Positions 15,486 to 50,122 of a DNA stretch of 64,000 nucleotides are shown one piece after another. The notes below the pieces were generated by a model. The model was not told the origin of the DNA. It saw only the letters and a program-made list of their open reading frames with translations, and made no database searches. The DNA comes from a virus, in the IMG/VR virus record IMGVR_UViG_3300025529_000001, positions 1 through 64,000 of that record, one strand, 5' to 3'. The stretch's first letter is position 1, and every line of letters starts with the position of its first letter. The translations under genes were made by a program, and so were the position numbers.

Positions 15486-15514
15486 ATTATATCATTATTC
15501 ATTATGTTTGTCAA
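15486..15514 (-). promoter_or_regulatory. SigA-type promoter for the ligase gene
   Basis: Minus strand reads TTGACA-17 nt-TATAAT with TGa. It overlaps the 3' end of the permease gene. Confidence 0.6.
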
Positions 15515-25235: not shown

Positions 25236-25593
25236 CTATCCTTTATACCCTCCCTTTCGGGATACTTTAACACTTCTCTAGGAAGTGGGAGTAGACTATA
25301 CAATCATCTGACAATATATTTTAATTTTAATGGGTAATTATCGCCACTATGAATCTTCCTGATTGTCAGATGCGGATATGGTAGTCGTTGAGGGTCTACC
25401 TATACGGTAGTTCCCTGCTGATTACCCATTGTACTTATAGAGTCCATTTCTGCTCTCTATAAATCCCTTCACTTTTTTCTGCTCTCGCTCCATTACATCT
25501 ATCCTTTCGGATTCCGCTTTGGCAGAAGGGCTTTAGGGCTTTCCAGCATTTAAATCCGTTATTCAATTACATGTCACCATGTAATGGCACAAA
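25236..25593 (-). mobile_element. ORF-less group I-like intron (nrdE intron 2)
   Basis: 358-nt ORF-free insert. Shares sequence blocks with the polymerase introns (tactttaacacttctctagg.agtgggagtagactata; gtagtcgttgagggt; ccctgctgattacccatt). Confidence 0.7.
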
Positions 25594-26735: not shown

Positions 26736-27645
26736 CAGTTATCCCTTATGTTTCCATAAGGACTAGACTATATCTTGTAAGATATTACAATCTTACCCTT
26801 GCACTTCCATTGGTGATAAACTCCAATGTACTCTACTCGCTTCCATCTTACGATGTGCTTTCGATAGTCGTTGCATCTTCATTGCAAAATTCCCAAATGA
26901 AACCTCCGCATGTTCCATTTCTTCTCTTCATTGATTTGGTTATAGATGTTTGAGTAACCCCAATATCTATGCTCGCTTCTTTGAGAGAATTATATATCTT
27001 AATGACTTCGCCTGTATTCTTATCTATCTTTTTAACAGGTTTATTCATTCCTCCATTGTTACCTTTTCTCCCTAATACATCGAATGCATGTTTCGTATTA
27101 TATGAAACAGTTACCCATTCAAGATTTTCCACTCTATTATCATCTTTAATACCATTTTTATGATTAACTACAGGTAAATTATTTGGATTATCAATAAATG
27201 TTTCAGCTACTAATACATGCACTCTTTTATAATGCCTTTTCCGTCTACTCTAAACGCTATTTTCAAATAGCCATCTTTATCATATGTAGGTATTAATTCT
27301 TTTTCTTTTATGTAAGTATATGAATTTTTATTTTTCCATTTAGCATATCTTTCTTTTCTAATTATCTTACCTGTATTACTTATTTTATAATATTCTTCAA
27401 ATCCTCTAACATCTTTCCACTCTTCCATTTTCACCACCCTTTAAACTGTATTATGCGGAATTTTGCAATGCTTGACACAGGATTACCATATCGTTATACC
27501 ATTATATTTTACTTTAGTATTCGACTTAGGCTTCCCTGTTAGCACAACGGTTAATGAGTCATTTCCTACTCAAAGCTAAACGCCAGTTGCACACCTCTTT
27601 ATCATGAGTTCGCAAGGTTTATAGTGGGCATAACTCTAAAAGTCT
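26736..27645 (-). mobile_element. Group I-like intron with (frameshifted) HNH endonuclease ORF (nrdE intron 1)
   Basis: 910-nt insert. The junction restores GGGVG|INLSNIRA. The upstream exon ends ...GGU and the intron ends ...AACUG. Confidence 0.75.
26848..27437 (-). pseudogene. HNH homing endonuclease split by a frameshift
   Basis: The N-part (27210..27437) carries NUMOD4-like EEWKDVRGFEEYYKISNTGKI. The C-part (26848..27222) carries VHVLVAETFIDNP...VNHKNGIKDDNRVENLEW plus GGFIW. The frames differ by one nucleotide and can be joined near the A4 run (plus-strand tttt at 27237..27240). Confidence 0.6.
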
Positions 27646-28263
27646 ACCCACTCCTCCTCCAATTTTTGACAGTTGCAATGCAGAGTTAACACTTCTACCA
27701 ATACCATGCATATCATCAGAAACTGTGATGAGATAGCACGACACCATCTCGCCTGCTCTAGCCTTGCCAATATTTAAAAATGTAGGTGTAGCAGGTTGGT
27801 AACGTTGGTTAATTAATTCGTCTGCCAAATCTAAAGCAAATTGTTCATCACCGTTAGCTAATGCCAATGCATTAAATGCAATCCTATCTTCATATCGTTC
27901 TAAAAATCTTTCACCATCATTAGTTTTTAATGCATATTGAGAATAAAATTTATAAGCCCCCATAAAGCTTTTAAATCTGAATTTTTTGTCATATATCTTT
28001 TTAAATAATTTTTTAATAAATTTTCTATCATATTTTTCTAGGAAATCTTTTTTAATGTAATTATTCTCAACTAAATAATCTAACTTTTCATCGAGTGTAT
28101 GGAAAAATACAGTATTTGGATTTACATACTCCAAAAAGTAAGCTCTTACTGCTTCTTTATCCTTGTCTAATTGGATTCTACCATCTTTAGGTATATTTAA
28201 TAGGTTGTTTAATTCAAAGTATGTTGTTTTCTTTGTTTGTTTACTTAGTTTTGGTGACTTCAA
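27646..28263 (-). CDS. nrdE: Ribonucleotide reductase class Ib alpha subunit, exon 1 of 3
   Basis: N-terminal NrdE region ...YFELNN...QPATPTFLN.GKARAGEMVSCYL...LSKIGGGVG. Confidence 0.8.
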
Positions 28264-29430: not shown

Positions 29431-30864
29431 TTAACGGATAGGACACACACCTTGTTCACATGATTCCATATTTTCAATATCTGCTTCTGTTTCAGCAAAC
29501 TCATATTTTCTTAGTAATTTTGGGTCAAATGGCTTCATTTTCGATTTTAATTCTTCGTATTGCTTTTTAGTAATGCTCTCATATGGGGCTAATGTATATG
29601 TTCCTCCATCATGAGCCAAAAATGATACACCAACAAAATTATTCCAATTATCCCATACGATTTGCTCTGCTTCTTCCCATTCATGTTCCTTAACTGTAAT
29701 AGTATTTGATGTATTATGTTCTGTATAATATTTTTGGAAAGAGAAATAATTGTCAAATTGTTCTTTTACTGTAATATCATCTTTTGTCCGTTTCGCCCCA
29801 GTCGCAACAGGGAAATCAATAACGATAGTTTTAGCTTTTTCAATCACTTCTGGCTTAGCTAAATCTTTTGTATGCTTATATCCTTCCGTACCTACTTCTG
29901 CATGAATAGTCCACCCTAATTCTTTAGCTACTTGCACTAAAGGGTCAGTAGCATTTATTCTAATTCTACGAATATAATAAGGGGCATGTGACCAATGTAG
30001 TCCACTTGAAACTCCTCCTGCTACTTGACTTAGCGTTCCTTCTGGCTTTACTGCAGTAACAAGTAAAGGAGTATTAACACGAAGATATTTACTGTATCTA
30101 TCAGCTTCTTCTCTTGCTGTTTTGTGCAAGAGTTCTTTCAGCTCATTTTCTTGTTCTTCTGTATATCCTAACATATCCATAGCATCTTTCCAACCAGTTA
30201 AACTACAGCCCAATAATCTATCACGTTTTTGTATTTTATCCCATTCAGGTAATTCTAATTTAGCTAAAGTCATTCGCAATCCAATTCTTGCGGATAGCTT
30301 TTGAGCTTCTAACAACCCATTTAAATCCAATGTGTTATCTGGTTTAACAAATGCTTTAACATTTACAGTTGTTAGGTTGCACACATTTTTGCTAAATAAA
30401 ATTATTTCTACACAAGGATTTAAACCAATTTTTTCCATTGTTTTCTCTAACCATTTTTTGTTAGGATTTTTAATTCCCAATGCTTTAGCAATACGTATTG
30501 CACCTTCTTCTAAGTTGACAAAGGCAGGTTCGCCTTCCCCTTGTAATAAGGCAAATTGTAGAGCGTGTTTTTCTCTCGAAGGTTTCTCTGTAAATGCAAC
30601 CGAATTGTTTGACATTCTTCGGTGCTCAATACCTTTTCTTCCTAAGTTAAAAGGCTGGTCTCCATTAATATCTTTGCCGTAATACTTAACACTTAATTCA
30701 TCAAACCATTTAGGAATTACAACTCCATTTTTAATTAAAAGCTCTCTTACTTTTTCATGATGTTCAAAATGTTTTTCTTTCCAAAATCCATTGATGCCAT
30801 ATTTTGCTAATAATACTTCATAATCATCGGCATCGAAAAGGAAGATTTCTGCTGTTCTTCGTAC
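29431..30864 (-). CDS. nrdJ: Class II (adenosylcobalamin-dependent) ribonucleotide reductase, exon 2 of 2
   Basis: VRRTAEIFLFD..., NPCVEIILFSKNVCNLTTVNV (active-site Cys/Glu context), and a C-terminal redox pair CEQGVCPIR as in monomeric RTPR-type enzymes. Confidence 0.7.
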   Translation of the reverse strand, partial: VRRTAEIFLFDADDYEVLLAKYGINGFWKEKHFEHHEKVRELLIKNGVVIPKWFDELSVKYYGKDINGDQPFNLGRKGIEHRRMSNNSVAFTEKPSREKHALQFALLQGEGEPAFVNLEEGAIRIAKALGIKNPNKKWLEKTMEKIGLNPCVEIILFSKNVCNLTTVNVKAFVKPDNTLDLNGLLEAQKLSARIGLRMTLAKLELPEWDKIQKRDRLLGCSLTGWKDAMDMLGYTEEQENELKELLHKTAREEADRYSKYLRVNTPLLVTAVKPEGTLSQVAGGVSSGLHWSHAPYYIRRIRINATDPLVQVAKELGWTIHAEVGTEGYKHTKDLAKPEVIEKAKTIVIDFPVATGAKRTKDDITVKEQFDNYFSFQKYYTEHNTSNTITVKEHEWEEAEQIVWDNWNNFVGVSFLAHDGGTYTLAPYESITKKQYEELKSKMKPFDPKLLRKYEFAETEADIENMESCEQGVCPIR

Positions 30865-31838
30865 CTTACTGTTAATCTCATATTTCTATGAGTGTTGGAC
30901 TATCTCTTACCTTTATATAAATATAAAGGCTCGGATTTCTAGGATGGGTTATTGGTTGTCATACCTCACCATCTAGTCTCTAAACCTTCCTGCTACACAA
31001 AATGACATTCACAGGAGTGGTAATTGATTAGCATAGGTAAATACACCCTTAGCTTCCCAATTTTAACCCGATTAGGTGGCATACGATAACAGCAGATATA
31101 TTTTATTGTTCTAAATTTTTTAGAAATTCTTGTGCAGTTCTTTCTTTATGCCTATGACAATATACAGGTTTATCTTGATAAATATATTTGACAATTTTTG
31201 CCACATTTTTTACTTTAGAAAACCTTAAAATATAGCATTTTTCTTTACTTTTTGGCTCAATGCTAGACGGAATATTTAATTCATTTAATAGAAAGTTTTG
31301 TATTTTTTTCAATACTTTTAACGATGGATGTGTTATTCCAAAATGACACCACAATCTATTTCTATCTTTTCTTCTCCCAAATCCAATGAATCCATCTGAA
31401 TCTAATAAACCTAATAAAAATTGTGACATGAATTTTTTAGGTATATGATGGAATGTTCTGTTCTCTTTTTTATCTAAAATGCCAAACTTTTCAAAACTAT
31501 TGCTAAATTTAGATGAAAATGTTATTTTATAAGACGGTCTATTAGATTTAATATTTCTCTTTTTATTTACAGGTATTCTTGACGAATATGTATTATCTGG
31601 CATAAATTCTTTTTGTATAAATTTTATTAAATCCTCTTCTATAGATGTTACATACAACCTTGCCTTTCTTTTATTAGTTTTTGGCTGTAAACCTCCATCA
31701 CCTAATAAATATCCTATTAAATACGCTTGTTCTTTCGTTTCTATTTTGTCAAATATATTAAACCTATATACTTTACCATTTATATGGTACTCTGCAAATT
31801 GTTTTCCCATATTCATCCTCCTATGGAGAAAGTTATTT
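30865..31838 (-). mobile_element. Group I-like intron with LAGLIDADG endonuclease ORF (nrdJ intron)
   Basis: 974-nt insert. The junction restores ...ANVVVGG|VRRTAEI. The exon ends ...GGU and the intron ends ...UAAG. Confidence 0.7.
31103..31810 (-). CDS. LAGLIDADG homing endonuclease (double-motif)
   Basis: Two dodecapeptide motifs, LIGYLLGDGGL and LLGLLDSDGFIG. Start set at MGKQF, 6 nt after AGGAGG. Confidence 0.8.
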   Translation of the reverse strand: MGKQFAEYHINGKVYRFNIFDKIETKEQAYLIGYLLGDGGLQPKTNKRKARLYVTSIEEDLIKFIQKEFMPDNTYSSRIPVNKKRNIKSNRPSYKITFSSKFSNSFEKFGILDKKENRTFHHIPKKFMSQFLLGLLDSDGFIGFGRRKDRNRLWCHFGITHPSLKVLKKIQNFLLNELNIPSSIEPKSKEKCYILRFSKVKNVAKIVKYIYQDKPVYCHRHKERTAQEFLKNLEQ

Positions 31839-32747
31839 ACCACCTACAACAACATTAGCACCAATCAAATTACAAATATCTAAAATATGAATCGGTCTGA
31901 CATGACCATAACCTTTTTCATCAGCTTCAATAGGTTTCAAATATGGGTCAATCTTATTTTTAAGCACTTTGTCAATACCTTCAAACATTTGTTGTAACGG
32001 TTCATGTCCACTAGCTGTTCCACCAAATGTTTTCAATCTTTCTCCTTTAGGTCTAACGCTATTATATGAAATTTTAATAGTATGTACAAATTCATATTTT
32101 GGTTCTATAAGAATTTTAAAATATTCATCAAGTGCTTCACACCAACCCTCTTTTGAATCTCCTACAAAAATTTTAGCAAATCCATTATCTAAAATTCTAA
32201 CTTCGGTATGCTCAAGTCTTTGTTCTGGTGGCAATTGCTTATATTCAGAATGAAGAAGTTTTGTATTAATCCTAATTTTCGGCATTTTACTTGCCATTTT
32301 TTTTGTACATTTTACACCTACGCCAACACCGACCATAAGTAAATAAAATACCTCTTTTAAATCAGACCATTTTTCAATGTTAGTGAAGCTGCAGTTAAAG
32401 TTGCCCAAAATAAACTTCTCATTAACAATTGGATTAGCGTTGCCTACCCACAACGTTCTACCGCTCGGAAATTGTTTTGCATTATAAATATTAATAAAAA
32501 GTTTTTCAGCTTCCTTTTTCACCTCTTTTAAATCTACTTGCAATCCAAGTTCTAACATATGTTTATATGCTAAAGACATATTAAATTCAACTGCTCGTTT
32601 TACAGTTTCATACCAATATTCTCTACGACCTTTATGTGGCAACCAACGAGAATAAGTGCGATAATTAACAAATTCACCTAACTCATCTAATGGTTTAGGA
32701 TCGTTTTCAACATAATCTGTAACAAATTTAGTAGATAAAAATTCCAT
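31839..32747 (-). CDS. nrdJ: Class II ribonucleotide reductase, exon 1 of 2
   Basis: N-terminal FVNYRTYSRWLPHKGRREYWYETVKRAVEFN... is typical of B12-dependent RNRs. Ends ...IGANVVVGG. Confidence 0.7.
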
Positions 32748-39520: not shown

Positions 39521-40297
39521 TCAATTTAACTCATTCAATCTCTGATTGGTTATATCTACTGCTTTCTTATTTAAGTCACAACCTATGTAATTCCTTCCTA
39601 ATTCCTTAGCAACTACTAAGCTTGTGCCACTACCACAGAAAAAATCAGCTACTAAATCCCCTTCATTCGTACTTGCTAATATAATTCTCTCAATAAGTTC
39701 TTTTGGTTTTTGCGTATTATAATCGACTCTTTCTTTAGATTGACTGTTTAAAATGCTAATTTCCCACACATCTCTCATAGCCTTTTTTCTTTCCTCTGAT
39801 ATATATTGTTGTTTTAACTTTCCATCATCCTCTTTTTTAGAAAACCTACTACCTTTGTGTTTTGACTTTTCACTAAAATCTTCATATTGGATATTGTATA
39901 TGTAATTATTTGATTTTGAATATCTTAAAATATTGTCGTGACTTCTTACAAAGTCTTTTCCAGAATTTGTCCATCTTGAATAAGACCATATAATTTCATT
40001 TCTAAAATTATCTTCACCAAATATTTTATCCATTTCAATTTTTATGTAATGTACTAATCTCCAATCCATTTGCAAATAAATTGTTCCTGTTTCTTTTAAA
40101 ACTCTAAACATTTCTATTAATCTTGGTTTATACCATTCTATAGCTTTTTTCGTGTCTCCTAAATTGTCATTATAGTCTCTAAATTTCTTTCTAGTATTGT
40201 AAAGGATATCACAATATATTAAATCCACCGTATTATCATTTAAATTTTTAAGTAATTCTAAATTATCAGTTTGATATACCTTGTTTACTTCTATCAC
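39521..40297 (-). CDS. Beta-class (N6A/N4C-type) DNA methyltransferase homologue with atypical motif IV
   Basis: C-terminal AdoMet motif I FFCGSGTSLVVAKELGRNYIGCDLN. The N-terminal motif IV position reads DLIYCDILYN instead of D/S-P-P-Y/F. Confidence 0.65.
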   Translation of the reverse strand: MIEVNKVYQTDNLELLKNLNDNTVDLIYCDILYNTRKKFRDYNDNLGDTKKAIEWYKPRLIEMFRVLKETGTIYLQMDWRLVHYIKIEMDKIFGEDNFRNEIIWSYSRWTNSGKDFVRSHDNILRYSKSNNYIYNIQYEDFSEKSKHKGSRFSKKEDDGKLKQQYISEERKKAMRDVWEISILNSQSKERVDYNTQKPKELIERIILASTNEGDLVADFFCGSGTSLVVAKELGRNYIGCDLNKKAVDITNQRLNELN

Positions 40298-40386
40298 AAA
40301 TACTTCCCTCCTTCTTTATAAAGTATTTATTTTTTATCAATATTTACAAAAAATCTTTGGTCGCTTTCCATTTGTCCAACTATGGT

Positions 40387-40620
40387 CTAATTATCCCCTT
40401 CATTTTTTGCATATCCATTTCTTAATTCACTATTTAAATCTTTTATATTATCTTTTATAATATTTAATTCGTCAATCAATTTACATAAATCGTTTATGTT
40501 ATATGTGTGAGTTGCATTATTAACACTATCCACTCTAAAACTATAGCCATTTTTACTTGTTCTAACTATTTGACCAGTAAAACTTGTACCTTTAACTTTA
40601 AATTCTTTATAAAATTCCAT
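40387..40620 (-). CDS. Hypothetical protein
   Basis: 77-aa ORF with an AGGAGGAA RBS. Confidence 0.45.
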   Translation of the reverse strand: MEFYKEFKVKGTSFTGQIVRTSKNGYSFRVDSVNNATHTYNINDLCKLIDELNIIKDNIKDLNSELRNGYAKNEGDN

Positions 40621-40733
40621 TATTATTCCTCCTTTTTAAATCCTACTATTATGTTTTGTTTTTGCCATCATTTTCTTATTTGTTTCAACCTTACATACAA
40701 CGGAGTAGCTCACTATGATAAATAGAAGTTTTA

Positions 40734-40937
40734 TCAATCTCTTGGAAGAATTTCATTTAACATTTCAATGACCTCTACTTCTTTAATATCATTACCATTT
40801 GCATCTCTGACAAGTAGACTATGGTTTAAATCTAATTTATCTCCGTATGTAACAAGCACTTCTCTTCCATTGCCAACATCCCACATCAATCCCAAAACAT
40901 TATCACCATTTTTTACTGCATATTTAAACTTCGCCAT
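40734..40937 (-). CDS. Hypothetical protein
   Basis: 67-aa ORF with an AAGGAGAAA RBS. Confidence 0.45.
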   Translation of the reverse strand: MAKFKYAVKNGDNVLGLMWDVGNGREVLVTYGDKLDLNHSLLVRDANGNDIKEVEVIEMLNEILPRD

Positions 40938-40984
40938 ATTAAATTTCTCCTTTTACTAATTTATAAATTAAAAGTTTCATCAAT

Positions 40985-41200
40985 TTATTTAAAATTTTTT
41001 ATCATATCTTGTAGTTCTTCTATTACGTCTTTCTGACCTTTATAATAGAAAGAATCATCATAATCCTCTCTGTCTTCTGCATCTTTAATACATCTTTCAG
41101 ACCTTTTAATAAATTTGTTCAATAAATCATTAAATTTTTCTGGGTCTATAATAACGTAACCTTTTTCCTCTCCATATTGACCATCTTTCACAATTATCAC
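40985..41200 (-). CDS. Hypothetical protein
   Basis: 71-aa ORF with an AGAGGTGA RBS. Confidence 0.45.
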   Translation of the reverse strand: MIIVKDGQYGEEKGYVIIDPEKFNDLLNKFIKRSERCIKDAEDREDYDDSFYYKGQKDVIEELQDMIKNFK

Positions 41201-41226
41201 CTCTTGATAAATTATTTATTTTTTAT

Positions 41227-41964
41227 TCACAGTTTATTAATTCTAGGTACAATGATTTCGTCAATATATTCCTGTTTTGTTTCAGTGGCAATCCATTGTC
41301 TACCCAATTTGATACATGATTCTATTTCTGTACCACTACCAGCAAACGGAATATATACCAATTCACCTTTATTGCTGTGTGCTTCAACGATAATATTCCC
41401 AAGTTCAATTTTCTTCTGTGTTTTATGACTTGTTCTTTCATCTTTTGTCATACTTCTCTGAATATCCCAATAGTTTCTCATCTGTTTACCATTATTGTAT
41501 TTCTTTAAGTCATCATGGTTAAAAGTCCAATCCTTATCACCATTACAGTACCATAAAATAAATTCTGTTGAATGTGCATACCCTCTTCTTGATACATTTG
41601 GTGGGGCATCTCTCTTCACCCATGTAATCATATCTATAAACTTCATTCCAGTTTCATCTAATAATGATTTCATATCAAAAATAGATTCTCTTGTACCATA
41701 AACAAGAATTGAGCCGCTTTCCTTTAATATCCTTTTAGACTCACTTATCCACTGTCTGCTAAACTCTAAATATTTTTCTTTTGAGTCAAAAATATCCCAA
41801 TCCTCACTTAAGGTTTGTATATTACCATGTGACTTACCTTTAAGTGGTTTTTTCTTTGCGATACCATAGGGTGGGTCGCATATCATTAATGATATTGATG
41901 AATCATCAAGTTTTTCCATAAAAGATACACAATCTTCATTATAAACTTTATTTAATTCTATCAT
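41227..41964 (-). CDS. Beta-class DNA methyltransferase (DPPY; probably N6-adenine)
   Basis: Motif IV LMICDPPYGI near the N-terminus and motif I IPFAGSGTEIESCIKLGRQWIATE near the C-terminus. Confidence 0.8.
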   Translation of the reverse strand: MIELNKVYNEDCVSFMEKLDDSSISLMICDPPYGIAKKKPLKGKSHGNIQTLSEDWDIFDSKEKYLEFSRQWISESKRILKESGSILVYGTRESIFDMKSLLDETGMKFIDMITWVKRDAPPNVSRRGYAHSTEFILWYCNGDKDWTFNHDDLKKYNNGKQMRNYWDIQRSMTKDERTSHKTQKKIELGNIIVEAHSNKGELVYIPFAGSGTEIESCIKLGRQWIATETKQEYIDEIIVPRINKL

Positions 41965-42017
41965 TATATCACATCCTAGATGTATTTATTTTAATATTAG
42001 TAAATAAAACTCGCATT

Positions 42018-42230
42018 TTATTCAATAGGATAAAGTCCTGTAATATTAGAATATTTAACTAGCAACATTTGCTCCTTTTCTTCATTCCAAAATGCACTTA
42101 ATCCATTGGGGTTGAAGTTTTCACATACACCAACAAACTCATTTTCTTTTTCATAATTATATTTATTGTTCGTCTTTTTATAGAAAACTAAATATTTACC
42201 ATTACCAATATTATAAGAATTTTTCCTCAC
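42018..42230 (-). CDS. Hypothetical protein
   Basis: 70-aa ORF. Confidence 0.4.
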   Translation of the reverse strand: MRKNSYNIGNGKYLVFYKKTNNKYNYEKENEFVGVCENFNPNGLSAFWNEEKEQMLLVKYSNITGLYPIE

Positions 42231-42301
42231 ATTGTTTCACCTCTGTATAAAAGAAAATTTTTATTAAAATTTATTAATGAATAAGATTATTAACTGTCTT
42301 T

Positions 42302-43175
42302 TTATATACTAAACACATTTAACCATTCTTCGTTAAAATCTTTTCTCTTACCAGAGATTCCACCTTTACCCCTTTTACTAACAATTAAATGTGCGTTATC
42401 CGTCATTTTATACCCTTCTGAAACATAAATCTTACTTTTTTTCTTATGCAATTTAATAATTGATAATAATTTATGTATATAAGAATTTACATCAAAATCA
42501 AAACCATAACCTGCTGCATTTTTATATGGTGGGTCAATGTACACTATACTATTATTATCAAAGTTACTATGTCGTTTATATCACCATAATATCCAAACAA
42601 TCCTTCCATTTTTTCCAAAATAATCTCTACTCTTTTAAATAATGTTTCTGGCATCGGCATCATAGGATTTACAGGGCTTTTCCTATTGGATGTTTCTGTT
42701 GGCAACCAATAATTTCTAAAACTTATATTCTGCCATTTATTATTTTCAACCCATATAGCTTTTGAGCCAAATGCACATGCTTGAAGAATTAAGAATTTAT
42801 AAACCATATTATCAAACAATCCATCGTTAGCAGGTTGTTTCGCCATTTCTTCTGCATATAATTTAATTTTTGTAATATCTTTAGGAATACTGTTTATGTA
42901 AAACTTAAATACATCTATGCTAAAAGTTCCATCACCGATTTTCTGCCAAAATAATCCCCAAGGCGATTTATCTACCATGATTATATTGCTAGGATTTACA
43001 CCTCTATTAACCAATTCAATAGAAATTGCTCCACTACCACAACATAAATCATAAAATTTTGTTTCTTCATTTATTCCATTTTCTTTGAAGAAAATGTCGA
43101 CAATATCTTTTGCGATACGCTGTTTACCGCCTTGATATGCACATGGTATTGTTAATTTATTCTTTTTTTAGCCAT
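42302..43175 (-). pseudogene. Alpha-class (Dam-like) DNA adenine methyltransferase interrupted by two frameshifts
   Basis: ATG at 43175 then an A7 run. The 0 frame stops after 7 codons (MAKKRIN*). The -1 frame continues KKNKLTIPCAYQGGKQRIAKDIV...FYDLCCGSGAISIEL (motif I). A second frame change near 42575..42590 leads to ...NNSIVYIDPPYKNAAGYGF (motif IV). Confidence 0.65.
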
Positions 43176-43226
43176 AATACACCTCGCTACACAATTATTC
43201 ATTGTATTCGATAAAAATTCATTTTA

Positions 43227-43706
43227 TTAATCTTCTACAACGGTAAATCTATCATCTTTTCGCCAACCATAGTTATATGGTTTGATAGTGTTCTGTACTA
43301 AATTTAAGCATAATCCCAACATATCTTTTATGAATTGCTCTTTTTCATCACCCCTTACACCCTCGTCATCAAAACTCCACATTTGGATTGCCTGTAATGT
43401 ATCGCATCCACTACAAGAGCCATATCCAACATATGTCATTAAGTATTCGGATTCAGAAGGCTGATATGTATTTTGTGGAATTATGTATAACAATGTTCCT
43501 TGATAATCTCCGTTATCGATTTCTGTTATATTTTCAGAATCAAACTTATCACCATAATAATCATCTTCATCATTAAAGATAATATCTACTACTTTTACAA
43601 CTAAGTCTTTATATGAAGCATTATTATATTCTGCGAAGTTATCTTCAATGTCTTTTCGTAGTTTATCTTTGTTTTTATTCCATTGTTCAATACAAAATTT
43701 TAACAT
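43227..43706 (-). CDS. Hypothetical protein
   Basis: 159-aa ORF containing GYGSCSGCDTLQ. No family recognised. Confidence 0.45.
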   Translation of the reverse strand: MLKFCIEQWNKNKDKLRKDIEDNFAEYNNASYKDLVVKVVDIIFNDEDDYYGDKFDSENITEIDNGDYQGTLLYIIPQNTYQPSESEYLMTYVGYGSCSGCDTLQAIQMWSFDDEGVRGDEKEQFIKDMLGLCLNLVQNTIKPYNYGWRKDDRFTVVED

Positions 43707-43742
43707 AATATCCTCTCCTTGATAAAATTATCCTTTAATTTA

Positions 43743-44456
43743 TTATGTATTTTTTACTTGTTGTCCAATTCTTTCACATGCTTTTATGTAATATTCTTTA
43801 TCTAACTCGAAAGCTATAAAATTACGATTTAATTCTTTACATGCGTGTGCCAAACTTCCACTACCACTAAATGGCTCTAGTAAAATGTCGCCTTCATTAC
43901 TATGTATCTTAACTAAATCTTTAATTAATTCTAATGGTTTTTCCGTAGGATGTATTCTTTCTTTGCTATGTACTACAGGATATTCAAAAATTGCATTTTC
44001 ATATGTATCACGCTGTCTATTAAACGTCCAACCATTACCCTTTGTTGCCCATAGTGCAAATTCACAAGAATTAACATATAGTCTATCTCTATTTCTTGGC
44101 ATGGGGTTAGATTTCTTCCATATAATCATTTGCTTGATTAAATATCCTTTTTCTTCTAGTTTATCTTTTATATAACTCATATTTTTCCAACTGTTAAAAA
44201 TTACAATGTTTCCACCTTTTTTAAGCAATTTATCAGCATAATCAATCCATGCAGTAAGGTCAAAATCTTTATCCCATTCTCCGAAGTCAATACCTTCTCT
44301 GCCCATTGTCTTAAAGTTATTATCTTGACTTACATTAAAAGGAGGGTCGGTAATAATATTATCTACGAAACTTCCATATTTATTAAATAATCTCTCCATG
44401 CCCTCAATGCAATCCATATTATAAATTTTATTCAATACTTCTTGTATATTACTCAT
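43743..44456 (-). CDS. Beta-class DNA methyltransferase (DPPF)
   Basis: Start set at MSNIQEVLNKIYNMDCIEG (RBS GAAAGGA). Motif IV NIITDPPFNV and motif I LEPFSGSGSLAHACKELNRNFIAFE. Confidence 0.8.
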   Translation of the reverse strand: MSNIQEVLNKIYNMDCIEGMERLFNKYGSFVDNIITDPPFNVSQDNNFKTMGREGIDFGEWDKDFDLTAWIDYADKLLKKGGNIVIFNSWKNMSYIKDKLEEKGYLIKQMIIWKKSNPMPRNRDRLYVNSCEFALWATKGNGWTFNRQRDTYENAIFEYPVVHSKERIHPTEKPLELIKDLVKIHSNEGDILLEPFSGSGSLAHACKELNRNFIAFELDKEYYIKACERIGQQVKNT

Positions 44457-44475
44457 TGTATCAATTCCTTTCACA

Positions 44476-44552
44476 CAATTCTTACGTAAGGAAGCCACTG
44501 GCTTTAGCCACGTGGAGGAATTGCGTATTTTAAACACGCTACGTAAGAATTG
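44476..44552 (-). repeat. Nested inverted repeats at the 3' boundary of the iscB module (candidate element end / terminator)
   Basis: Outer perfect 13-bp inverted repeat caattcttacgta (44476..44488) / tacgtaagaattg (44540..44552), which spans the iscB stop codon. Inner hairpin CCACTGGCT-tt-AGCCAcGTGG (44495..44515). Confidence 0.6.
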
Positions 44553-45819
44553 CTACCTCCTTTCTATAACTATACCCATCAAAGTGTTGTACAACTGAAA
44601 AATATTTATGATTTACACCTTGTACAACTCTTTGACATTCCTTGTCTTTAATATCAAAATTACCTGATTTTCTACATGCAACTTCTCCGTACCAAATGCC
44701 TTTATATTTTCCTTTTGGTATTTCAGCTTTAACCATATCTCCTGTTTGAAAACCAAAGAAATATTTTTGTCTTGCTAAATATCCCCTCGGAAAGCCGTAT
44801 TTATCTAAATTTGTTCTACAATGACTGCCTCGACCTTTTGCCTTTATGTATAAAACATTTTTAGTTTTAAAATATAATTTATCTGGTGTGCTTTGCCCTA
44901 CACAACAAGCATCAAAATAATGTTCTTTTGGCAATCCTAATTTGATTCTATTCATTTTTGTTAGAGCACCTGTACCACATTCTACTTCTAAACCACTATT
45001 GTTAAGCAAATTATAAACTTTCCATCTTGTAGAATTTACTACAGAAGAATCTTTTAATGTTTGTTTAACTTGTTTTTGCATATCAGGATAACCAAATTCT
45101 TCTGCTGTCATATTACCTTTCTTCTGGTTACACTCATGGCAAGCTAAACAGAGATTATCAATTCTGTTTGTTCCACCCCTTGATTTTGGTATTATATGTT
45201 CTACTTCTAATGGGATGTTTTCTTTTCCACAATAACAACATTTTCTACCAAACTTTTCAAGTAAATATTCTCTAATTTCATACCCTTGAAGTGTACCTTG
45301 TTGGTACTCAATGCCACTTATTTCAGGATTTTGCATTAATTGAGTATCAAACTTAACATTTTCATAAGATATGTGAGTTAATGGAATTAATTTTTGTAAC
45401 CTATTAACCCATGTTTTTATATTATTAACCCTACTTTCTAAACTTGGTGGTATCCATCCTTCTTTTCTTTTTCTATTTAAAAATCTTGGTTTTCTATATC
45501 TTGTTCTTCTATTTCTTCTGTTGCGTCTAAACATACGTCTATCATCAAGTTTCTTTTTAATATCTGTTCTGTGGTCTATTTGAGCTAACCATATTACATT
45601 GTTATTTTGTAGTATAGCTAATCCTGTATGCTTACTACCGTAATCAATTTTTAATCTATATTTTTTCTTGTTTTTAGTGTCTTCTACTGATTTTTTTAAT
45701 ATTATCGTAAATGGGTATTTTTTAAATATTGTTGCTTTGCCTTGTTTAAGCAGTTTTCTTGCAACTGCTTCGTGGCAAGGTGATAATGGTTTTTTATTTG
45801 CATCTAATACAAATACCAT
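44539..45819 (-). CDS. iscB: IscB-type RNA-guided nuclease (RuvC with inserted HNH, PLMP N-terminus)
   Basis: Domain order read from the translation is as follows. PLMP-like MVFVLDANKKPLSPCHEAVARKLL. RuvC-I KIDYGSKHTGLAIL. Arg-rich bridge helix RRMFRRNRRNRRTRYRKPRF. RuvC-II ISYENVKFD. HNH CCYCG..LEVEHIIPKSRGG..NLCLACHECNQKKG. RuvC-III KEHYFDACCVG. A C-terminal beta-rich domain follows. RBS AAAGGAGAAA upstream. Confidence 0.8.
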   Translation of the reverse strand: MVFVLDANKKPLSPCHEAVARKLLKQGKATIFKKYPFTIILKKSVEDTKNKKKYRLKIDYGSKHTGLAILQNNNVIWLAQIDHRTDIKKKLDDRRMFRRNRRNRRTRYRKPRFLNRKRKEGWIPPSLESRVNNIKTWVNRLQKLIPLTHISYENVKFDTQLMQNPEISGIEYQQGTLQGYEIREYLLEKFGRKCCYCGKENIPLEVEHIIPKSRGGTNRIDNLCLACHECNQKKGNMTAEEFGYPDMQKQVKQTLKDSSVVNSTRWKVYNLLNNSGLEVECGTGALTKMNRIKLGLPKEHYFDACCVGQSTPDKLYFKTKNVLYIKAKGRGSHCRTNLDKYGFPRGYLARQKYFFGFQTGDMVKAEIPKGKYKGIWYGEVACRKSGNFDIKDKECQRVVQGVNHKYFSVVQHFDGYSYRKEVAILT

Positions 45820-46057
45820 AGGAATTTCTCCTTTCTCTGCTTACGCAGGTAATGTCCTTCTCGACAAAGTTATCTATGTTTGTATGTACAACACACTGGC
45901 TTAACCCACTACACCTGTTTAATGTTGTACGACAGGGTTTAAGACTGAAGGAGCATCCTAAAGTGTCATAACATAGATAACGTAGGTTCTGTTTCAAACC
46001 TTAGTCTGGTCAACATAAGGCTATCAAGCCCACGACTTTAGTCGTTGGGTAGTTGAC
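45820..46057 (-). ncRNA. Candidate omega RNA (IscB guide/scaffold RNA)
   Basis: ORF-free and visibly GC-richer than its surroundings. Lies between the promoter at 46064..46092 and the iscB RBS. Contains the hairpin CCCAaCGAC/GTCGTGGG (46029..46049), a perfect 12-nt long-range complement (45869..45880 with 45970..45981), and AGACTAAGG/CCTTcAGTCT pairing. Exact ends and the guide segment were not determined. Confidence 0.55.
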
Positions 46058-46063
46058 TATTAT

Positions 46064-46092
46064 ATTATATCATTATTTACTATGTTTGTCAA
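46064..46092 (-). promoter_or_regulatory. SigA-type phage promoter driving the omega-RNA/iscB/methyltransferase unit
   Basis: Minus strand reads TTGACA-aacatagtaaataatga(17)-TATAAT with TGa. The spacer closely resembles those of other promoters in this window. Confidence 0.6.
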
Positions 46093-46228
46093 TGGGTAAC
46101 ATCATTAAACAGTTTTCGGTTTTCATTATTGTTCCGAATCAATATATAAGTATCTTCGCCACCTTGTTTCTCAATAACACTTAAACTGTTTAAAATGTCT
46201 AAAACTTTTTGTTTTTCATTTTCCAATG

Positions 46229-46636
46229 CTATTTTCCATACTTCTTATTAAAATCACGATAACCCATTAATTGTTGTCTTGCAATTCCTTTTGCAATCAC
46301 ACCTGTAATCTCGGTTTTGTAAGCATATTTAAAGTCATGAAAAACAACACAATTTTGAAAATATTTGTCTATAACAACCACTGTATAAGCATCTGTAATC
46401 GCTTGACCTGCCATACCTCCAAAGCCACAAGAGGTATCTCCCCAAGTTTGCTTCCACACCTTTACTTCAAAATCTTCAAAACCTGTTCTTCCTTTTAAAT
46501 GACTGCTAAGTGCATTTATTCCTTCTTCTATACACCGTTGTAAATCACCTAAAAATTTATACATTTTATTCATCCTTTGCTTCTTGATTCTTCTATTTAT
46601 CAGAGTCATACTATGTGTTAATCTGGTTGTCGCCAA
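46229..46636 (-). CDS. Hypothetical protein
   Basis: 135-aa ORF. The true start may be the internal MNKMYKF. Confidence 0.45.
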   Translation of the reverse strand: MATTRLTHSMTLINRRIKKQRMNKMYKFLGDLQRCIEEGINALSSHLKGRTGFEDFEVKVWKQTWGDTSCGFGGMAGQAITDAYTVVVIDKYFQNCVVFHDFKYAYKTEITGVIAKGIARQQLMGYRDFNKKYGK

Positions 46637-46803
46637 GTTAAAATTTTCCCAGCACCTTCTACTACTTCACACTTAGAAATATCTCCTCTTGTTACTTCAT
46701 CTTCATTTACTATGATGTCAATTGCTTGTTGCATATCTCTAGCAATAACAACTGACCTAGTTAGATTTCCGTTAGAGAAATATTCAACTTTAAAAATTTT
46801 CAT
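46618..46803 (-). CDS. Hypothetical protein
   Basis: 61-aa ORF with a GAAAGGA RBS. Confidence 0.45.
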   Translation of the reverse strand: MKIFKVEYFSNGNLTRSVVIARDMQQAIDIIVNEDEVTRGDISKCEVVEGAGKILTWRQPD

Positions 46804-46850
46804 GATATCAATCCTTTCTTTCGTTCAACTCTGTATAATCGAATTACGAA

Positions 46851-47048
46851 TTAACTTTTAAGTTTCTTTCCATCTCGCAATCCGATTTTATAGGCTTGTT
46901 CGATAGCTTTAACAACTTCTTTGAAATCTCTTGTAAAAGTAGCATCTTCTGGTTCAACTGCATCAGACAATATCATTACAGTATCAGAACCATCAGTCAT
47001 TTTGATGTAATTAGCACATTCTTTTCCACATCCATTATTAGGTTGCAA
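46851..47048 (-). CDS. Hypothetical protein
   Basis: 65-aa ORF whose annotated start is TTG. The start is uncertain. Confidence 0.35.
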   Translation of the reverse strand: MQPNNGCGKECANYIKMTDGSDTVMILSDAVEPEDATFTRDFKEVVKAIEQAYKIGLRDGKKLKS

Positions 47049-47162
47049 TTTCTGTTCTTCCCTAGTTAATTATTGAAAAGAAACAACATTTACTTTTAAC
47101 ATTCATATCATCCTTTCTTTATTACACACCATGTTTCATTTGTTACTTAATCTTCGAATTGT

Positions 47163-47309
47163 TCAGTAACTTATTTTCCTTACTTTAACTTGTTCGTCTT
47201 TTGAAACTACATATTTGTCTTTCGCTTTAACAGCTTCTTCTTTTGTTATGAAACGTTCTATAAGATATTCCTTATTTTTATTCTTATAACTAAAGTAAGT
47301 TCCATACAT
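47163..47309 (-). CDS. Hypothetical small protein (below ORF-track cutoff)
   Basis: MYGTYFSYKNKNKEYLIERFITKEEAVKAKDKYVVSKDEQVKVRKISY, with RBS AAAGGAAAGGTGA. Confidence 0.4.
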   Translation of the reverse strand: MYGTYFSYKNKNKEYLIERFITKEEAVKAKDKYVVSKDEQVKVRKISY

Positions 47310-47379
47310 AGTTAATCACCTTTCCTTTATGTCGCAATATGATTCTACTTTGTACTTTCCTCGGAATCCGCATTAAATA

Positions 47380-47640
47380 TTAACTGTGTATTAACTTAGC
47401 TTGACCTTTAACTTCAATTTTTGAATTTGTTTTAAATATAATACTTTCGATTTCTACAACAATTCCTTCTCGCCCGTTAGGTACATAAATTAGACTTCCT
47501 AATTCAATACCTTCGCCTTCTAACTGGACGGTAAAAGAATAAATCTCTTCTTGCTTAGCTTTTAAATCCATTTTACTAATTACATCCATCCACGCTTGCA
47601 TTTTGTCATTTGCGTTCTTTTTCTTAGCCAAAATATTCAA
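47380..47640 (-). CDS. Hypothetical protein
   Basis: 86-aa ORF with an AAGGAG RBS. Confidence 0.45.
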   Translation of the reverse strand: MNILAKKKNANDKMQAWMDVISKMDLKAKQEEIYSFTVQLEGEGIELGSLIYVPNGREGIVVEIESIIFKTNSKIEVKGQAKLIHS

Positions 47641-47852
47641 CTCCTTACAATTTCTTTGAAGTGTTCATTACTTATATACTGACTGCATGACCATCATCAG
47701 TATAACTTGGTCGTATTTGTCATCTTCACAATACGCTTCATAAGCAAAAAGAGCATTATTCAAAGCATGATATTCTTCTGTTATCCATTTTTCACATTCT
47801 TCTGATGATAATGTATATTGAATAATATATACCCTTCATTTCTCCTTTACTT

Positions 47853-48191
47853 CTAAATTTTGTTCTCCAATGCTTCGCATGCTATTTTTATCGCTTGTGC
47901 ATGAATTTCTCCCTCAAAGTTATATCCGCCACCAAAAGATTCTGAATCCCAACCTAATCTATTTATCTCTTCTAACGCCTGTTTGTAGCGTTCGTTTTGT
48001 TCTCTTAATTCTTGATTTGTGACGTAATACGATTGAGCCGTATCTTTCCATTCGTCTCTTTCTTCTTCCAATTCCTTAACACGATTGATTAGCCACTCAA
48101 TATCTGAATCTGCTATACGATTAGCTATTGAATTTTCTATTGCCCATCGGTAGGCTTCTTTTATTTCTTCCAATCGTTCCTTATCAGCCAT
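47853..48191 (-). CDS. Hypothetical coiled-coil protein
   Basis: Start set at MADKERLEE (RBS GGAGGTG). Shares the RLEEIKE.Y motif with the upstream paralogous-looking gene. Confidence 0.45.
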   Translation of the reverse strand: MADKERLEEIKEAYRWAIENSIANRIADSDIEWLINRVKELEEERDEWKDTAQSYYVTNQELREQNERYKQALEEINRLGWDSESFGGGYNFEGEIHAQAIKIACEALENKI

Positions 48192-48516
48192 TTTGCACCT
48201 CCACATGCTTATCATAAATCCGTTTCACATGTTCAAATCCCTCTAAAGCACCTCTTTGCCACTGGCTTTTCGGGTTGCGTTTTACATTGCTTTTTTGCCA
48301 TCTGTATTCAAAATTAAATTCCTTATTGAATCCAGCTAAAGCTTTTTCATACTGTTTAACCTTTTCTTCCAATTCCTCAATTCGTTCGGTTTGTTTGATT
48401 AGCCAAACTAAATCTTTTATATCTACTCCAATTACTTCTACGTCATTTATATATTCCAAAACTGTAACTTCTGAATATTTTTCTTTTATTTCTTCCAACC
48501 GTTCACTATATTTCAT
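48184..48516 (-). CDS. Hypothetical coiled-coil protein
   Basis: Start set at MKYSERLEEIKEKY (RBS AAGAGGTGA). Confidence 0.45.
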   Translation of the reverse strand: MKYSERLEEIKEKYSEVTVLEYINDVEVIGVDIKDLVWLIKQTERIEELEEKVKQYEKALAGFNKEFNFEYRWQKSNVKRNPKSQWQRGALEGFEHVKRIYDKHVEVQNG

Positions 48517-48781
48517 CAATTTCACCTCTTATACACTTAGTTTTCTTTTTGATTTCTGCCACTTCTTCTACCTCATCTTCATTCAACCATATAAAATCTT
48601 CGTCATCTCGGAGGTCTTGTTCTAATCCATCATAGTTCATGAATTGAAAATATCTTTCTTCTATCACTTCCCCATCAGCATAATACTCGTCAGTTACCTC
48701 TTTAATTAATATGACGATTTCACCAACCTCAAAAGAATGTCCAAAACCACCGATTACTTTAGCTTTTCTTCCCATCTCCAT
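48506..48781 (-). CDS. Hypothetical protein
   Basis: 91-aa ORF with a GAGGTGA RBS. Confidence 0.45.
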   Translation of the reverse strand: MEMGRKAKVIGGFGHSFEVGEIVILIKEVTDEYYADGEVIEERYFQFMNYDGLEQDLRDDEDFIWLNEDEVEEVAEIKKKTKCIRGEIDEI

Positions 48782-48813
48782 ATTATCACCTCATGATATG
48801 ATGATATGATTAT

Positions 48814-48842
48814 ATTATACTACAAAATTTATATTTTGTCAA
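48814..48842 (-). promoter_or_regulatory. SigA-type promoter
   Basis: Minus strand reads TTGACA-17 nt-TATAAT. Confidence 0.55.
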
Positions 48843-48849
48843 TAGATTT

Positions 48850-49593
48850 TTATAAACTTAATTTAACTATTTCCATAATGATATTATCTAGCTTATCTTT
48901 GAGTTCTTGATTAGGTGTGAATGAATGGTATTTTTCTTTTAATTGTTTAAATTTAGCTTCGTAATAGAATTTAACAAAGTTTTCAAATGATTCTAATGTA
49001 AATAATCCACGCTTAATATCTAACATAAACTCTCGCTCTTGCTCATTGTATGTCATAGCTTTTTTAAAATCTTCGAAATCTGTATTTGCAAATCTCACAA
49101 TAAAATCTAACACCCTATACGCATGTAGTGCTTGCTTAGTATCATAACCGAATGTATCTACCAAATGTTGAGTTCCGTCAGTACCTTTCTTTAATAGTTT
49201 CATCTTGCTTAAAAACATTCCACCACAAGAATTATACAGGTGAGGAAGATTCATTTTTGAAATCTCATCTTTATTTTCAAAAATCTTGGATAGCATTAAT
49301 TTCTGCTCTCTCCCTAACTCATCATTAATAATGATTTCATTAGAAAACAACACTTCTATAAAGTTGATGTTGGCTTTATATAGGATGTTTGGCAACTTCC
49401 TAATATCATACATATCTCCTTTATATAAATCTTCAAATGTAGGCAATACAAATACTTTATAATCTCTATCAGACGTAATAAATCTATCACCTGTATTAAT
49501 GTTTTTAATCTCATCAACATTGAGATTGTAGTTATGTGAGCCTACTAAAGCTTTAAATACAAATTTTCTATCCATTCTTATAATCATTCCCAT
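48850..49593 (-). CDS. Possible nucleotidyltransferase-fold protein (PF10127-like), tentative
   Basis: N-terminal LVGSHNYNL...SDRDYKVFVLP resembles the GS...D.D minimal nucleotidyltransferase motif. Otherwise unassigned. Confidence 0.35.
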   Translation of the reverse strand: MGMIIRMDRKFVFKALVGSHNYNLNVDEIKNINTGDRFITSDRDYKVFVLPTFEDLYKGDMYDIRKLPNILYKANINFIEVLFSNEIIINDELGREQKLMLSKIFENKDEISKMNLPHLYNSCGGMFLSKMKLLKKGTDGTQHLVDTFGYDTKQALHAYRVLDFIVRFANTDFEDFKKAMTYNEQEREFMLDIKRGLFTLESFENFVKFYYEAKFKQLKEKYHSFTPNQELKDKLDNIIMEIVKLSL

Positions 49594-49610
49594 TCTTATT
49601 ATTCATATAC

Positions 49611-49639
49611 ATTATATCATTATTTTTATCTTTAGTCAA
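49611..49639 (-). promoter_or_regulatory. SigA-type promoter
   Basis: Minus strand reads TTGACT-17 nt-TATAAT with TGa. Confidence 0.5.
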
Positions 49640-49846
49640 ACAAAAAATTTGGGCGAATTGCTTAAATTTTGCAACCCACCCTGCTGTAGCTTCAAAATCA
49701 ATCCTTTACCTATTTTAATTCCACTTTTAAAAAATGTTTGTCATCTAAATAGGTTAGAGTTAACTTCAGGCTAAATTTCTTATGGCATGTTATACTTTGT
49801 ATCTTGTATTTTATGTATAACATACCCTGTTGTAATTAATTATTCC

Positions 49847-50122
49847 CTACCTTTTTTTTAGTTTCTCAATCAGTTCTTCCTTTTTCTTTTCATCATAACT
49901 CTCATATCTTTCTTCTTTATATTGATTAGAAAAATGAAGTGCAAAATCAGTCATATGCTTTTGACACAAATCAACTGGGCATGAATATTCTGCAAAGATT
50001 CTATCATTTAAATATTCAATAGAGTTCCAATGACCGTCTGCTTCTTCTCCGCAGACATCACAAATGTTTTCAATGATTTCTTTTTTTACTTGTGCCATAA
50101 AAAATCTCACCTCATATCTCAT
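49847..50122 (-). CDS. Hypothetical zinc-binding protein
   Basis: 91 aa with CDVCGEE...CPVDLCQKH. Confidence 0.4.
   Translation of the reverse strand: MRYEVRFFMAQVKKEIIENICDVCGEEADGHWNSIEYLNDRIFAEYSCPVDLCQKHMTDFALHFSNQYKEERYESYDEKKKEELIEKLKKR

Follow-up and report, generated by a model that had tools for sequence, protein, structure and literature searches.

IscB proteins are the likely ancestors of Cas9 and their natural role is partly understood: the role demonstrated for them is the restoration of their own transposon after its excision in bacterial chromosomes. In phages, such a guide-RNA nuclease could promote homing from one co-infecting genome to another, in the manner of classical phage homing endonucleases. 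In the present study we analysed an iscB locus of a phage, contained in positions 1 to 64,000 of the IMG/VR virus record IMGVR_UViG_3300025529_000001 (this whole stretch of 64,000 nucleotides is referred to below as the window). The analysis revealed an iscB gene and its predicted omega-RNA within a transposon that lies exactly at the predicted start site of a phage promoter. We consider it probable (roughly 0.78) that this transposon is selfish and non-autonomous and that its IscB serves as an RNA-guided homing nuclease in a Bacillus-type phage.

Relation to described IscB systems and phage nucleases

GstIscB, encoded by ISGst5 of Geobacillus stearothermophilus, uses the motif TTCAT and cleaves donor joints (Meers 2023, 10.1101/2023.03.14.532601). 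The phage locus resembles this system in being a non-autonomous element of the IS200/IS605 type, in carrying the omega-RNA upstream of iscB and bounded by the right end, and in placing the guide beyond the element and the motif directly at the left end; the two motifs (TTCAT there, TTCAC here) are one base apart. A likeness is also seen in residue numbering (the dead mutant of GstIscB is D58A/H209A/H210A; the residues concerned here include D59 and H208), and the IscB proteins of thermophilic Bacillaceae (Anoxybacillus, Neobacillus and Aeribacillus) are 75–76% identical to the window protein. In contrast to GstIscB, the window copy belongs to an AT-rich sub-lineage (GC content at third codon positions, GC3, ~0.15) and sits in a phage promoter/leader. 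Members of this sub-lineage with at least 85% identity were detected only in viral or metagenomic contigs, with the exception of three short fragments binned into metagenome-assembled genomes (MAGs).

The predicted fold of the window protein matches best the OgeuIscB–omega-RNA complexes (7utn, 7xht, 8csz; PMC9640706), with which it shares the domain order and the catalytic residues. The two proteins differ in length (496 amino acids in OgeuIscB vs. 426 here), there is no high-scoring alignment past approximately residue 311, and the motif of OgeuIscB is NWRRNA (PMC12660989) vs. the inferred GTGAW of the present locus. Among phage nucleases, Seg/Mob of T4 and I-HmuI (PMC13565253) are also selfish and expected to spread by cutting element-free co-infecting genomes. 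Unlike these enzymes, the window IscB would be targeted by a guide RNA together with a short motif, and its transposon ends permit moves to non-homologous sites.

The initial annotation of the locus had left open whether the combination of a phage and IscB was new. It has in fact been reported before: in the available text of these two sources, a viral or prophage origin is assigned to over 16% of the contigs with HEARO/IscB (Goltsman 2022, PMC9755519), and HEARO is found among the non-coding RNAs of Staphylococcus Silviavirus phages (PMC13346280). In that text IscB-HEARO occurs in viral genomes, as here, and is given without the insertion-site anatomy, guide or boundaries of the phage copies. 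Moreover, tblastn searches detected mostly unrecognised IscB homologues in deposited phages of Ralstonia, Microcoleus, Nodularia, Staphylococcus and Clostridium, but these are only 30–50% identical to the window protein. The occurrence of IscB/HEARO in phages is already published and the locus is not a new type of system; the literature searches made retrieved no functional study of a phage-borne IscB. What the locus adds is an insertion exactly at a promoter start site, a guide that equals a −10 box, and a bias of insertion towards leaders and Shine-Dalgarno sequences, which make phage-to-phage RNA-guided homing testable without demonstrating it. The locus is fully mapped (ends, motif, guide and interrupted promoter), has a near-identical family in other phage contigs and is usable for a homing test; it supplies a compact IscB of 426 amino acids with an inferred GTGAW motif in an AT-rich background.

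The iscB gene product

The gene and the residues of its product that were compared with OgeuIscB are the following:

44539..45819, minus strand: iscB coding sequence; order of the encoded parts: PLMP-like, RuvC-I, bridge helix, RuvC-II, HNH, RuvC-III, beta-rich C-terminus
PLSP, residues 11–14: aligns with the PLMP motif of OgeuIscB (14–17)
RuvC D59: aligns with OgeuIscB D61
RuvC E153: aligns with OgeuIscB E193
HNH H208: aligns with OgeuIscB H247
RuvC H300: aligns with OgeuIscB H340
RuvC D303: aligns with OgeuIscB D343

This open reading frame (ORF) of 426 amino acids is the sole long ORF of the region. Its product was assigned to the NCBIfam equivalog NF040563 ('RNA-guided endonuclease IscB', guided_IscB) with a score of 456.6 bits vs. 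a cutoff of 175 (residues 2–308). The Pfam profile RRXRR matched residues 2–175 over the entire profile length (E = 5e-75), and the Pfam profiles HNH_5, HNH and HNH_4 matched residues ~194–243, between RuvC-II and RuvC-III. The bridge helix corresponds to the Arg-rich residues 94–118 in the OgeuIscB alignment, and the closest sequence matches among solved structures were all IscB proteins (TbaIscB, HfmIscB and OgeuIscB). The intact IscB that had been proposed initially is borne out by these matches, with its domain order up to RuvC-III, as is the presence of the catalytic residues D, E, H and H..D, each of which aligns with a catalytic residue of OgeuIscB (as listed by Kato et al., PMC9640706). 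Residues D59, E153, H208, H300 and D303 are unchanged across 36 homologues. Judged from its sequence, the ORF is a full-length, intact IscB.

In the profile comparison, by which the IscB assignment was to be checked, the IscB model scored far over its cutoff and the Cas9 models far under theirs (TIGR01865, 34.8 vs. 100; Cas9d, 62.7 vs. 375), and no CRISPR-like repeat array was detected in the region 40000–50000. A type II Cas9 or a Cas9 fragment is ruled out by the size of 426 amino acids, the sub-cutoff Cas9 scores and the array-less neighbourhood. A plain HNH homing endonuclease of the I-HmuI type is ruled out by the full RuvC and by the lack of NUMOD domains, none of which appeared in the profile searches of the IscB protein. 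The layout of the protein had been described as unlike that of the simple HNH homing endonucleases of the window, correctly so: it has a complete split RuvC, and those HNH ORFs are I-HmuI-like and unrelated to it.

An AlphaFold2 model of the protein (mean predicted local distance difference test score, pLDDT, 70; predicted template modelling score 0.68) gave as top structural matches in a whole-chain Foldseek comparison the IscB/IsrB complexes 8csz, 9k30 and 8dmb, with template modelling (TM) scores of ~0.5–0.58 for IscB. The C-terminal beta-rich domain of the initial annotation was reproduced in part: residues 311–426 (the last ~115) are beta-rich in the predicted structure, with pLDDT values of 72–87 over residues 351–420, but they lie outside the NCBIfam IscB profile and outside the high-scoring alignments to solved IscB chains. 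Their assignment as a counterpart of the WED/target-adjacent motif (TAM)-interacting domain is plausible on the strength of the model.

The omega-RNA leader

Directly upstream of iscB, on the same strand, there is a leader of 238 nt (45820..46057) without a credible ORF, which includes the following feature:

45849..46057, minus strand: omega-RNA scaffold (Rfam HEARO, RF02033, model positions 1–211 of 211), running on to the ribosome-binding site (RBS) of iscB and its start codon at 45819

The match to RF02033 reached 155 bits vs. a gathering score of 83 (E between 3e-34 and ~1e-33) and was the sole above-threshold Rfam match within the 64 kb. An alignment of 13 homologous leaders revealed compensatory changes in 31 of the 62 predicted base pairs. 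The GC content is 0.36–0.38 in 250-nt windows over the leader and 0.41 over the HEARO match, vs. 0.31 for the whole window. HEARO RNA is the omega-RNA of IscB (PMC13565253; Meers 2023, 10.1101/2023.03.14.532601), and the leader is predicted from its sequence and covariation to encode the cognate omega-RNA of this iscB. The initial annotation had placed the omega-RNA in an ORF-free, structured, GC-richer leader of ~230 nt upstream of the gene, and the covariance-model search, with its full-length HEARO match, agrees with this placement. A 67-amino-acid ORF (45794–45997) within the omega-RNA is unsupported and was treated as spurious.

Boundaries and ends of the transposon

The boundaries were defined by alignment of the flanks of copies that are 85–97% identical and of more distant ones (about 75–79%). 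The window site was compared with 22 other insertion sites, giving 23 distinct sites in total: window 44470–44474, L084–L086, L170–L172, L175–L177, L179–L180, L183, L215–L217, L219–L220, L222 and L224–L227 (L-numbers, here and below, are labels of comparison contigs/loci). The features defined in this way, together with the predicted terminal structures, are:

44475..46057, minus strand: whole IscB/omega-RNA element, 1583 bp; iscB reads from the right end (46057) to the left end (44475)
44470..44474, minus strand: transposon/target-adjacent motif directly next to the left end, GTGAA (iscB strand) or TTCAC (plus strand)
46029..46049: right-end subterminal imperfect hairpin, plus-strand sequence CCCACGAC-TTTA-GTCGtTGGG (DNA fold z-score −3.16)
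44475..44538: left end, with an imperfect hairpin at 44495–44515, minus-strand sequence CCACgTGGC-TAAA-GCCAgTGG (centroid DNA fold)

Both boundaries are sharp: on the right, homology starts exactly at GTCAAC (46057), and on the left it stops at 44475, just before the conserved GTGAW. The motif GTGAD is present in 22 of the 23 distinct insertion sites and GCGAA in the remaining one, the rest of the flanks being unrelated. The insertion generated no target-site duplication, the flanks ATAATA and GTGAA being different, and the element ends carry no inverted terminal repeats but subterminal imperfect hairpins instead. The loop TTTA (plus strand) occurs in the hairpins of both ends. The right-end hairpin doubles in the RNA as the first stem-loop of the omega-RNA and shows compensatory A-T to G-C changes in L085 and L170. 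The left-end hairpin is flanked by a 12-bp inverted repeat (AATTCTTACGTA / TACGTAAGAATT) and occurs once in the window, and the left end is kept in all copies.

The absence of an adjacent tnpA gene, pointed out in the initial annotation, extends to the entire window: a six-frame translation of the 64 kb gave no match to Y1 TnpA (best E = 0.45 with the IS608 TnpA query, which had been checked beforehand against PDB 2a6m). Approximately 98.5% of iscB genes are without an adjacent tnpA (Meers 2023, 10.1101/2023.03.14.532601). By its ends and gene content, the element is classed as a non-autonomous transposon of the IS200/IS605 type (ISC) with iscB and omega-RNA. The interval originally singled out for the module (44476..46092) coincides nearly exactly with the stretch from the far end of this transposon to the −35 box of the promoter described below.

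Insertion into a phage promoter

The element is flanked by the following features of the phage:

46064..46092, minus strand: phage sigma-70-type promoter, outside the element (TTGACA at 46092–46087, 17-nt spacer with TGn, TATAAT at 46069–46064)
43743..44469, minus strand: interrupted transcription unit (RBS AAGGAA at 44469–44464; N6/N4 DNA methyltransferase gene with ATG at 44456, Pfam N6_N4_Mtase)
1002, 3442, 10016, 12781, 15514, 19768, 22112, 33403, 36154, 46092, 49639, 51210, 51839, 56162, 58466, 61097, 62399, minus strand: positions of promoters of this type

The promoter at 46092..46064 matches the consensus at 12 of 12 positions and has the TGn extension in addition. A pattern scan for TTGACA-N(14–16)-TGnTATAAT detected at least 17 such promoters in the window. 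Every one of them is on the minus strand; the plus strand had none. Each of them is followed by an RBS and a start codon within a few tens of bases, and three have a common 29-nt core (at most two mismatches). The leaders behind these promoters are very short, with predicted start sites just ahead of the RBSs.

The methyltransferase gene (44456..43743) is now located downstream of the element. When the element was excised in silico, TATAAT-ATAATA was joined to GTGAAAGGAATTGATACAATG, which restored a typical short leader, RBS and start codon of the methyltransferase gene; the predicted empty junction reads ...TGATATAATATAATA joined directly to GTGAAAGGAATTGATACAATG.... In L090 the same promoter is fused directly to a homologous methyltransferase leader with no element between (TTGACAAACATAATAAATAATGATATAATATAAACATAGAAGGGAAATGATAAAATG), the methyltransferase being 90% and its gene 86% identical. 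Since the promoter is one of at least 17 that are alike, and since in L090 it is joined directly to the methyltransferase leader, it is the phage's own and not the element's. The initial annotation had a consensus phage promoter transcribing the module; a consensus promoter does lie directly upstream, but it is owned by the phage, is not part of the element and was originally the promoter of the methyltransferase gene. As mapped here, the element is inserted between the −10 box and the RBS of the methyltransferase gene, co-oriented with transcription.

Searches for an empty site gave negative results. The predicted empty site of the window retrieved from IMG/VR only an unrelated phage promoter, and those of the sibling elements L170 and L086 retrieved nothing, so that presence/absence polymorphism of the element was not demonstrated by the empty-site searches in IMG/VR. 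The methyltransferase showed at most 57% identity to proteins of cultured phages (tblastn), with no usable empty-site homologue, and its relatives in IMG/VR have no other genes in common with the region. Exact matches of the flanking proteins came only from the same phage, in three samples, with the element present in each. The upstream gene (111 amino acids) had no match in IMG/VR, and a megablast search with 43000–47500 against INPHARED gave no near-identical phage record.

In sample SRR5251418, contig L212 ends at 46028 and contig L003 starts at 46054, with an overlap of 27 nt inside the right end; both are 100% identical to the window. An element-free variant as the source of these breaks was ruled out by the overlap and the identity, and they represent a repeat-induced assembly break, which would fit the presence of several element copies in that sample.

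The predicted guide and its transcription

The guide was placed by the boundary mapping together with the rule for IscB elements by which the guide is the sequence immediately beyond the right end (Meers 2023, 10.1101/2023.03.14.532601); its length of 16 nt was assumed from other IscB systems.

46058..46073, minus strand: predicted 16-nt guide ATGATATAATATAATA, the right-end flank directly 5' of the scaffold, equal to the extended −10 box

The canonical +1, seven bases past the −10 box, would fall at 46057, i.e. on scaffold base 1. Therefore, this promoter alone would give a guide-less omega-RNA, and the guide would be transcribed only via read-through from upstream genes. The next upstream consensus promoter is located at 49639, and the regular-expression scan found no other of the extended −10 type between 46092 and 49639. 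No terminator was predicted in the scanned region 43500..47500.

At the occupied site the guide match is followed by GTCAA, not by GTGAA. The window contains 13 matches to the guide with at most three mismatches, and in no case does GTGAD come immediately after the match, so that self-cleavage would not be expected.

In an unrelated phage of IMG/VR (L213, 3208–3228; L214, 7110–7130) a promoter/leader of the sequence ...AATATATAATATAATA-GTGAAAGGAG matches 14 of the 16 guide positions, both mismatches being motif-distal, and continues with GTGAA. This match is probably due to chance, because the guide is a generic −10 sequence.

Sister copies, mobility and selection

Copies at least 85% identical were detected in nine IMG/VR viral contigs, at different loci; the phage contigs with such copies otherwise have little in common with the window phage. 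Copies of 85–97% identity were also present on contigs with SPbeta-type genes (YonD/G/J/K, YorH, terminase) and with tail/sheath genes. Among species-representative genomes, copies of at least 85% identity occurred only on three short MAG-binned contigs (2–13 kb), and the IscB proteins of isolate genomes (Anoxybacillus, Clostridia) are about 75–79% identical. Insertion sites and guides differ among all copies.

The number of synonymous substitutions per synonymous site (dS) between the iscB genes of the window and L084 is 0.085, while the only other common proteins of the two (helicase, primase and guanylate-kinase homologues) are 26–36% identical; the element has therefore moved horizontally and recently. 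The ratio of non-synonymous to synonymous substitutions (dN/dS) between phage-contig copies is 0.10–0.17, and these iscB copies are under purifying selection. In the window, L084, L086, L170, L172, L215 and L217, iscB has a GC content of 0.30 and GC3 values of 0.13–0.17, which resemble the AT-rich carrier genomes, compared with a GC content of 0.42 and GC3 values of 0.34–0.37 in Anoxybacillus copies (L176, L177 and L183). The low GC3 suggests a long residence of the sub-lineage in AT-rich genomes.

The insertions are biased towards 5' leaders: an ATG lies 1–12 nt past the motif in 16 of the 23 sites, vs. 31% of all GTGAD in the same loci (binomial p = 1.7e-4). Many junctions read GGAG followed, across the junction, by GTGAT, which is a Firmicutes Shine-Dalgarno sequence. 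The bias towards leaders and Shine-Dalgarno sequences could be the reason for the known co-orientation of such elements with upstream transcription.

Some phage-like contigs harbour more than one IscB gene. Two different IscB genes lie a few kb apart in L172–L174 from a biogas fermenter (84% and ~35–39% identical to the window protein) and in L215/L233, a 185-kb IMG/VR contig (92% and 54%), and one element of L227 is preceded on its 5' side by another left end, which indicates tandem elements. In L085 the element is found ~20 nt past the 3' end of a tRNA gene.

Proposed mechanism and alternative explanations

In the homing scenario that we prefer, which follows the characterised Geobacillus system, the transposon would have been placed next to a TTCAC motif, at a point that coincides with the predicted +1 of the phage promoter, by a Y1 transposase that the host or some other element provided in trans. 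This promoter would transcribe the scaffold, iscB, the left end and the methyltransferase gene as a single RNA, and read-through transcripts from upstream genes would also carry ATGATATAATATAATA as a guide. The IscB–omega-RNA complex would then cut the 'empty' allele 5'-ATGATATAATATAATA-GTGAA-3', represented by the donor joint after excision or by the same site in a co-infecting element-free phage, and repair by recombination from the element-bearing genome would restore or spread the element (RNA-guided homing). The occupied locus would be spared owing to its GTCAA. Several points weigh against this scenario: (i) the mobilising enzyme has no candidate gene, there being no transposase in the 64-kb window; (ii) the exact empty allele of this phage was not found, and L090 has another motif than the window and other bases at the end of the guide; (iii) guide-bearing RNA would need read-through from promoters at least 3.5 kb upstream; (iv) the guide is of low complexity, with A or T at 15 of its 16 positions; and (v) the motif preference of this orthologue was deduced from insertion sites.

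The AT-rich sub-lineage may, more specifically, be phage-specialised and work as an RNA-guided gene drive when phages co-infect a cell, a proposal that we regard as tentative and on balance unlikely. The motif GTGAW, often within the GGAG-GTGAT junction, would direct the element into 5' leaders, in the orientation of the gene that follows; the flanking leader, transcribed from phage promoters, would supply the guide; and the nuclease would cut the homologous element-free leader of a competitor, resulting in conversion or killing of the latter. In the window, the −10-box guide might also strike look-alike promoters of other phages. Also unlikely is a silent passenger, in which IscB and the scaffold are expressed, most or all of the omega-RNA is guide-less and the element is carried until it decays. 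The end of TATAAT at 46064, which sets the canonical +1 on the first HEARO base, would fit such a passenger, as would the lack of a further consensus extended −10 promoter between 46092 and 49639. However, both the ORF and the RNA are intact, the dN/dS values are low and the RNA pairs covary; with no terminator predicted between the upstream genes and the guide within the scanned 43500..47500, guide-bearing read-through is plausible, and IscB elements generally rely on upstream co-oriented transcription (Meers 2023, 10.1101/2023.03.14.532601).

A domesticated weapon, whose fixed guide cuts competitor phage or host DNA at similar promoter/leader sequences, appears improbable. The guide is indeed of a −10 type common to many promoters of the phage and its relatives, the unrelated IMG/VR phage mentioned above combines a 14/16 match with GTGAA, and expression would come from a strong phage promoter. 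Nevertheless, the ends and hairpins of the transposon and the motif beside it have been retained in full, and the element recurs at many sites that are unrelated to each other and supply unrelated guides, a pattern characteristic of an active transposon rather than of a gene that has become fixed in the phage. In addition, L090 is without a cleavable site and no IscB was found among the tblastn matches from cultured Bacillus phages. On this evidence, a parasitic transposon is more likely than a weapon domesticated by the phage. The chance that the enzyme is not RNA-guided, being either a Cas9 fragment or a protein-guided HNH homing endonuclease (RRXRR/McrA-like), seems to us negligible: homologues are named 'HNH endonuclease' or 'McrA' in some source databases and there are weak sub-threshold matches to Cas9 models, but the split RuvC of the protein is complete and retains its four catalytic residues, a bridge helix and a PLMP-like domain are found as well, and a cognate HEARO RNA is present. 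The Cas9 scores remain far under their cutoffs with no CRISPR array nearby, and the genuine homing HNH ORFs of the window are of another, I-HmuI-like kind.

The carrier phage and other genes of the window

The window is identical to a 153.6-kb Joint Genome Institute contig and to a 125-kb contig of the European Nucleotide Archive. Its replicative helicase is 77% identical to that of Bacillus phage vB_BcoS-136, and further matches come from Bacillus siphophages of ~160 kb; by these similarities the carrier is classed as a Bacillus-type siphophage of ~150 kb. Other genes of the window encode a primase, RecJ, RNase H, topoisomerase subunits, DNA polymerase III alpha, ribonucleotide reductases and ligases.

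The region had initially been described as rich in methyltransferases and homing endonucleases, and this description holds, with three N6/N4 methyltransferase genes near the element and HNH and LAGLIDADG ORFs elsewhere in the window. I-HmuI-like HNH ORFs are located at 6080–6619 and 26848–27222. The former lies between the two parts of the split DNA polymerase III alpha gene (3447–4988 and 6778–8052), and the latter, an HNH_3 ORF, between those of the class Ib ribonucleotide reductase gene nrdE (25563–26660 and 27619–28263). The class II ribonucleotide reductase gene is also split, with a LAGLIDADG ORF between the pieces (29431–30615, 31103–31843, 31833–32747). The inserts that split these three genes are probably introns or inteins.

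Directly past one of the consensus promoters there is a gene for a xanthine/uracil permease of 391 amino acids (15495–16670, minus strand; Pfam Xan_ur_permease, E = 4e-38), a membrane transporter that looks misplaced amid replication genes. A gene for an AAA_33 plus HD protein (kinase/HD-phosphatase-like) overlaps that of an RNA ligase of the T4 Rnl1 type (17533–19708, minus strand), which suggests a tRNA-repair pair. The window also contains genes for a ClpP protease (10058–10690) and a thymidine kinase (8775–9356).

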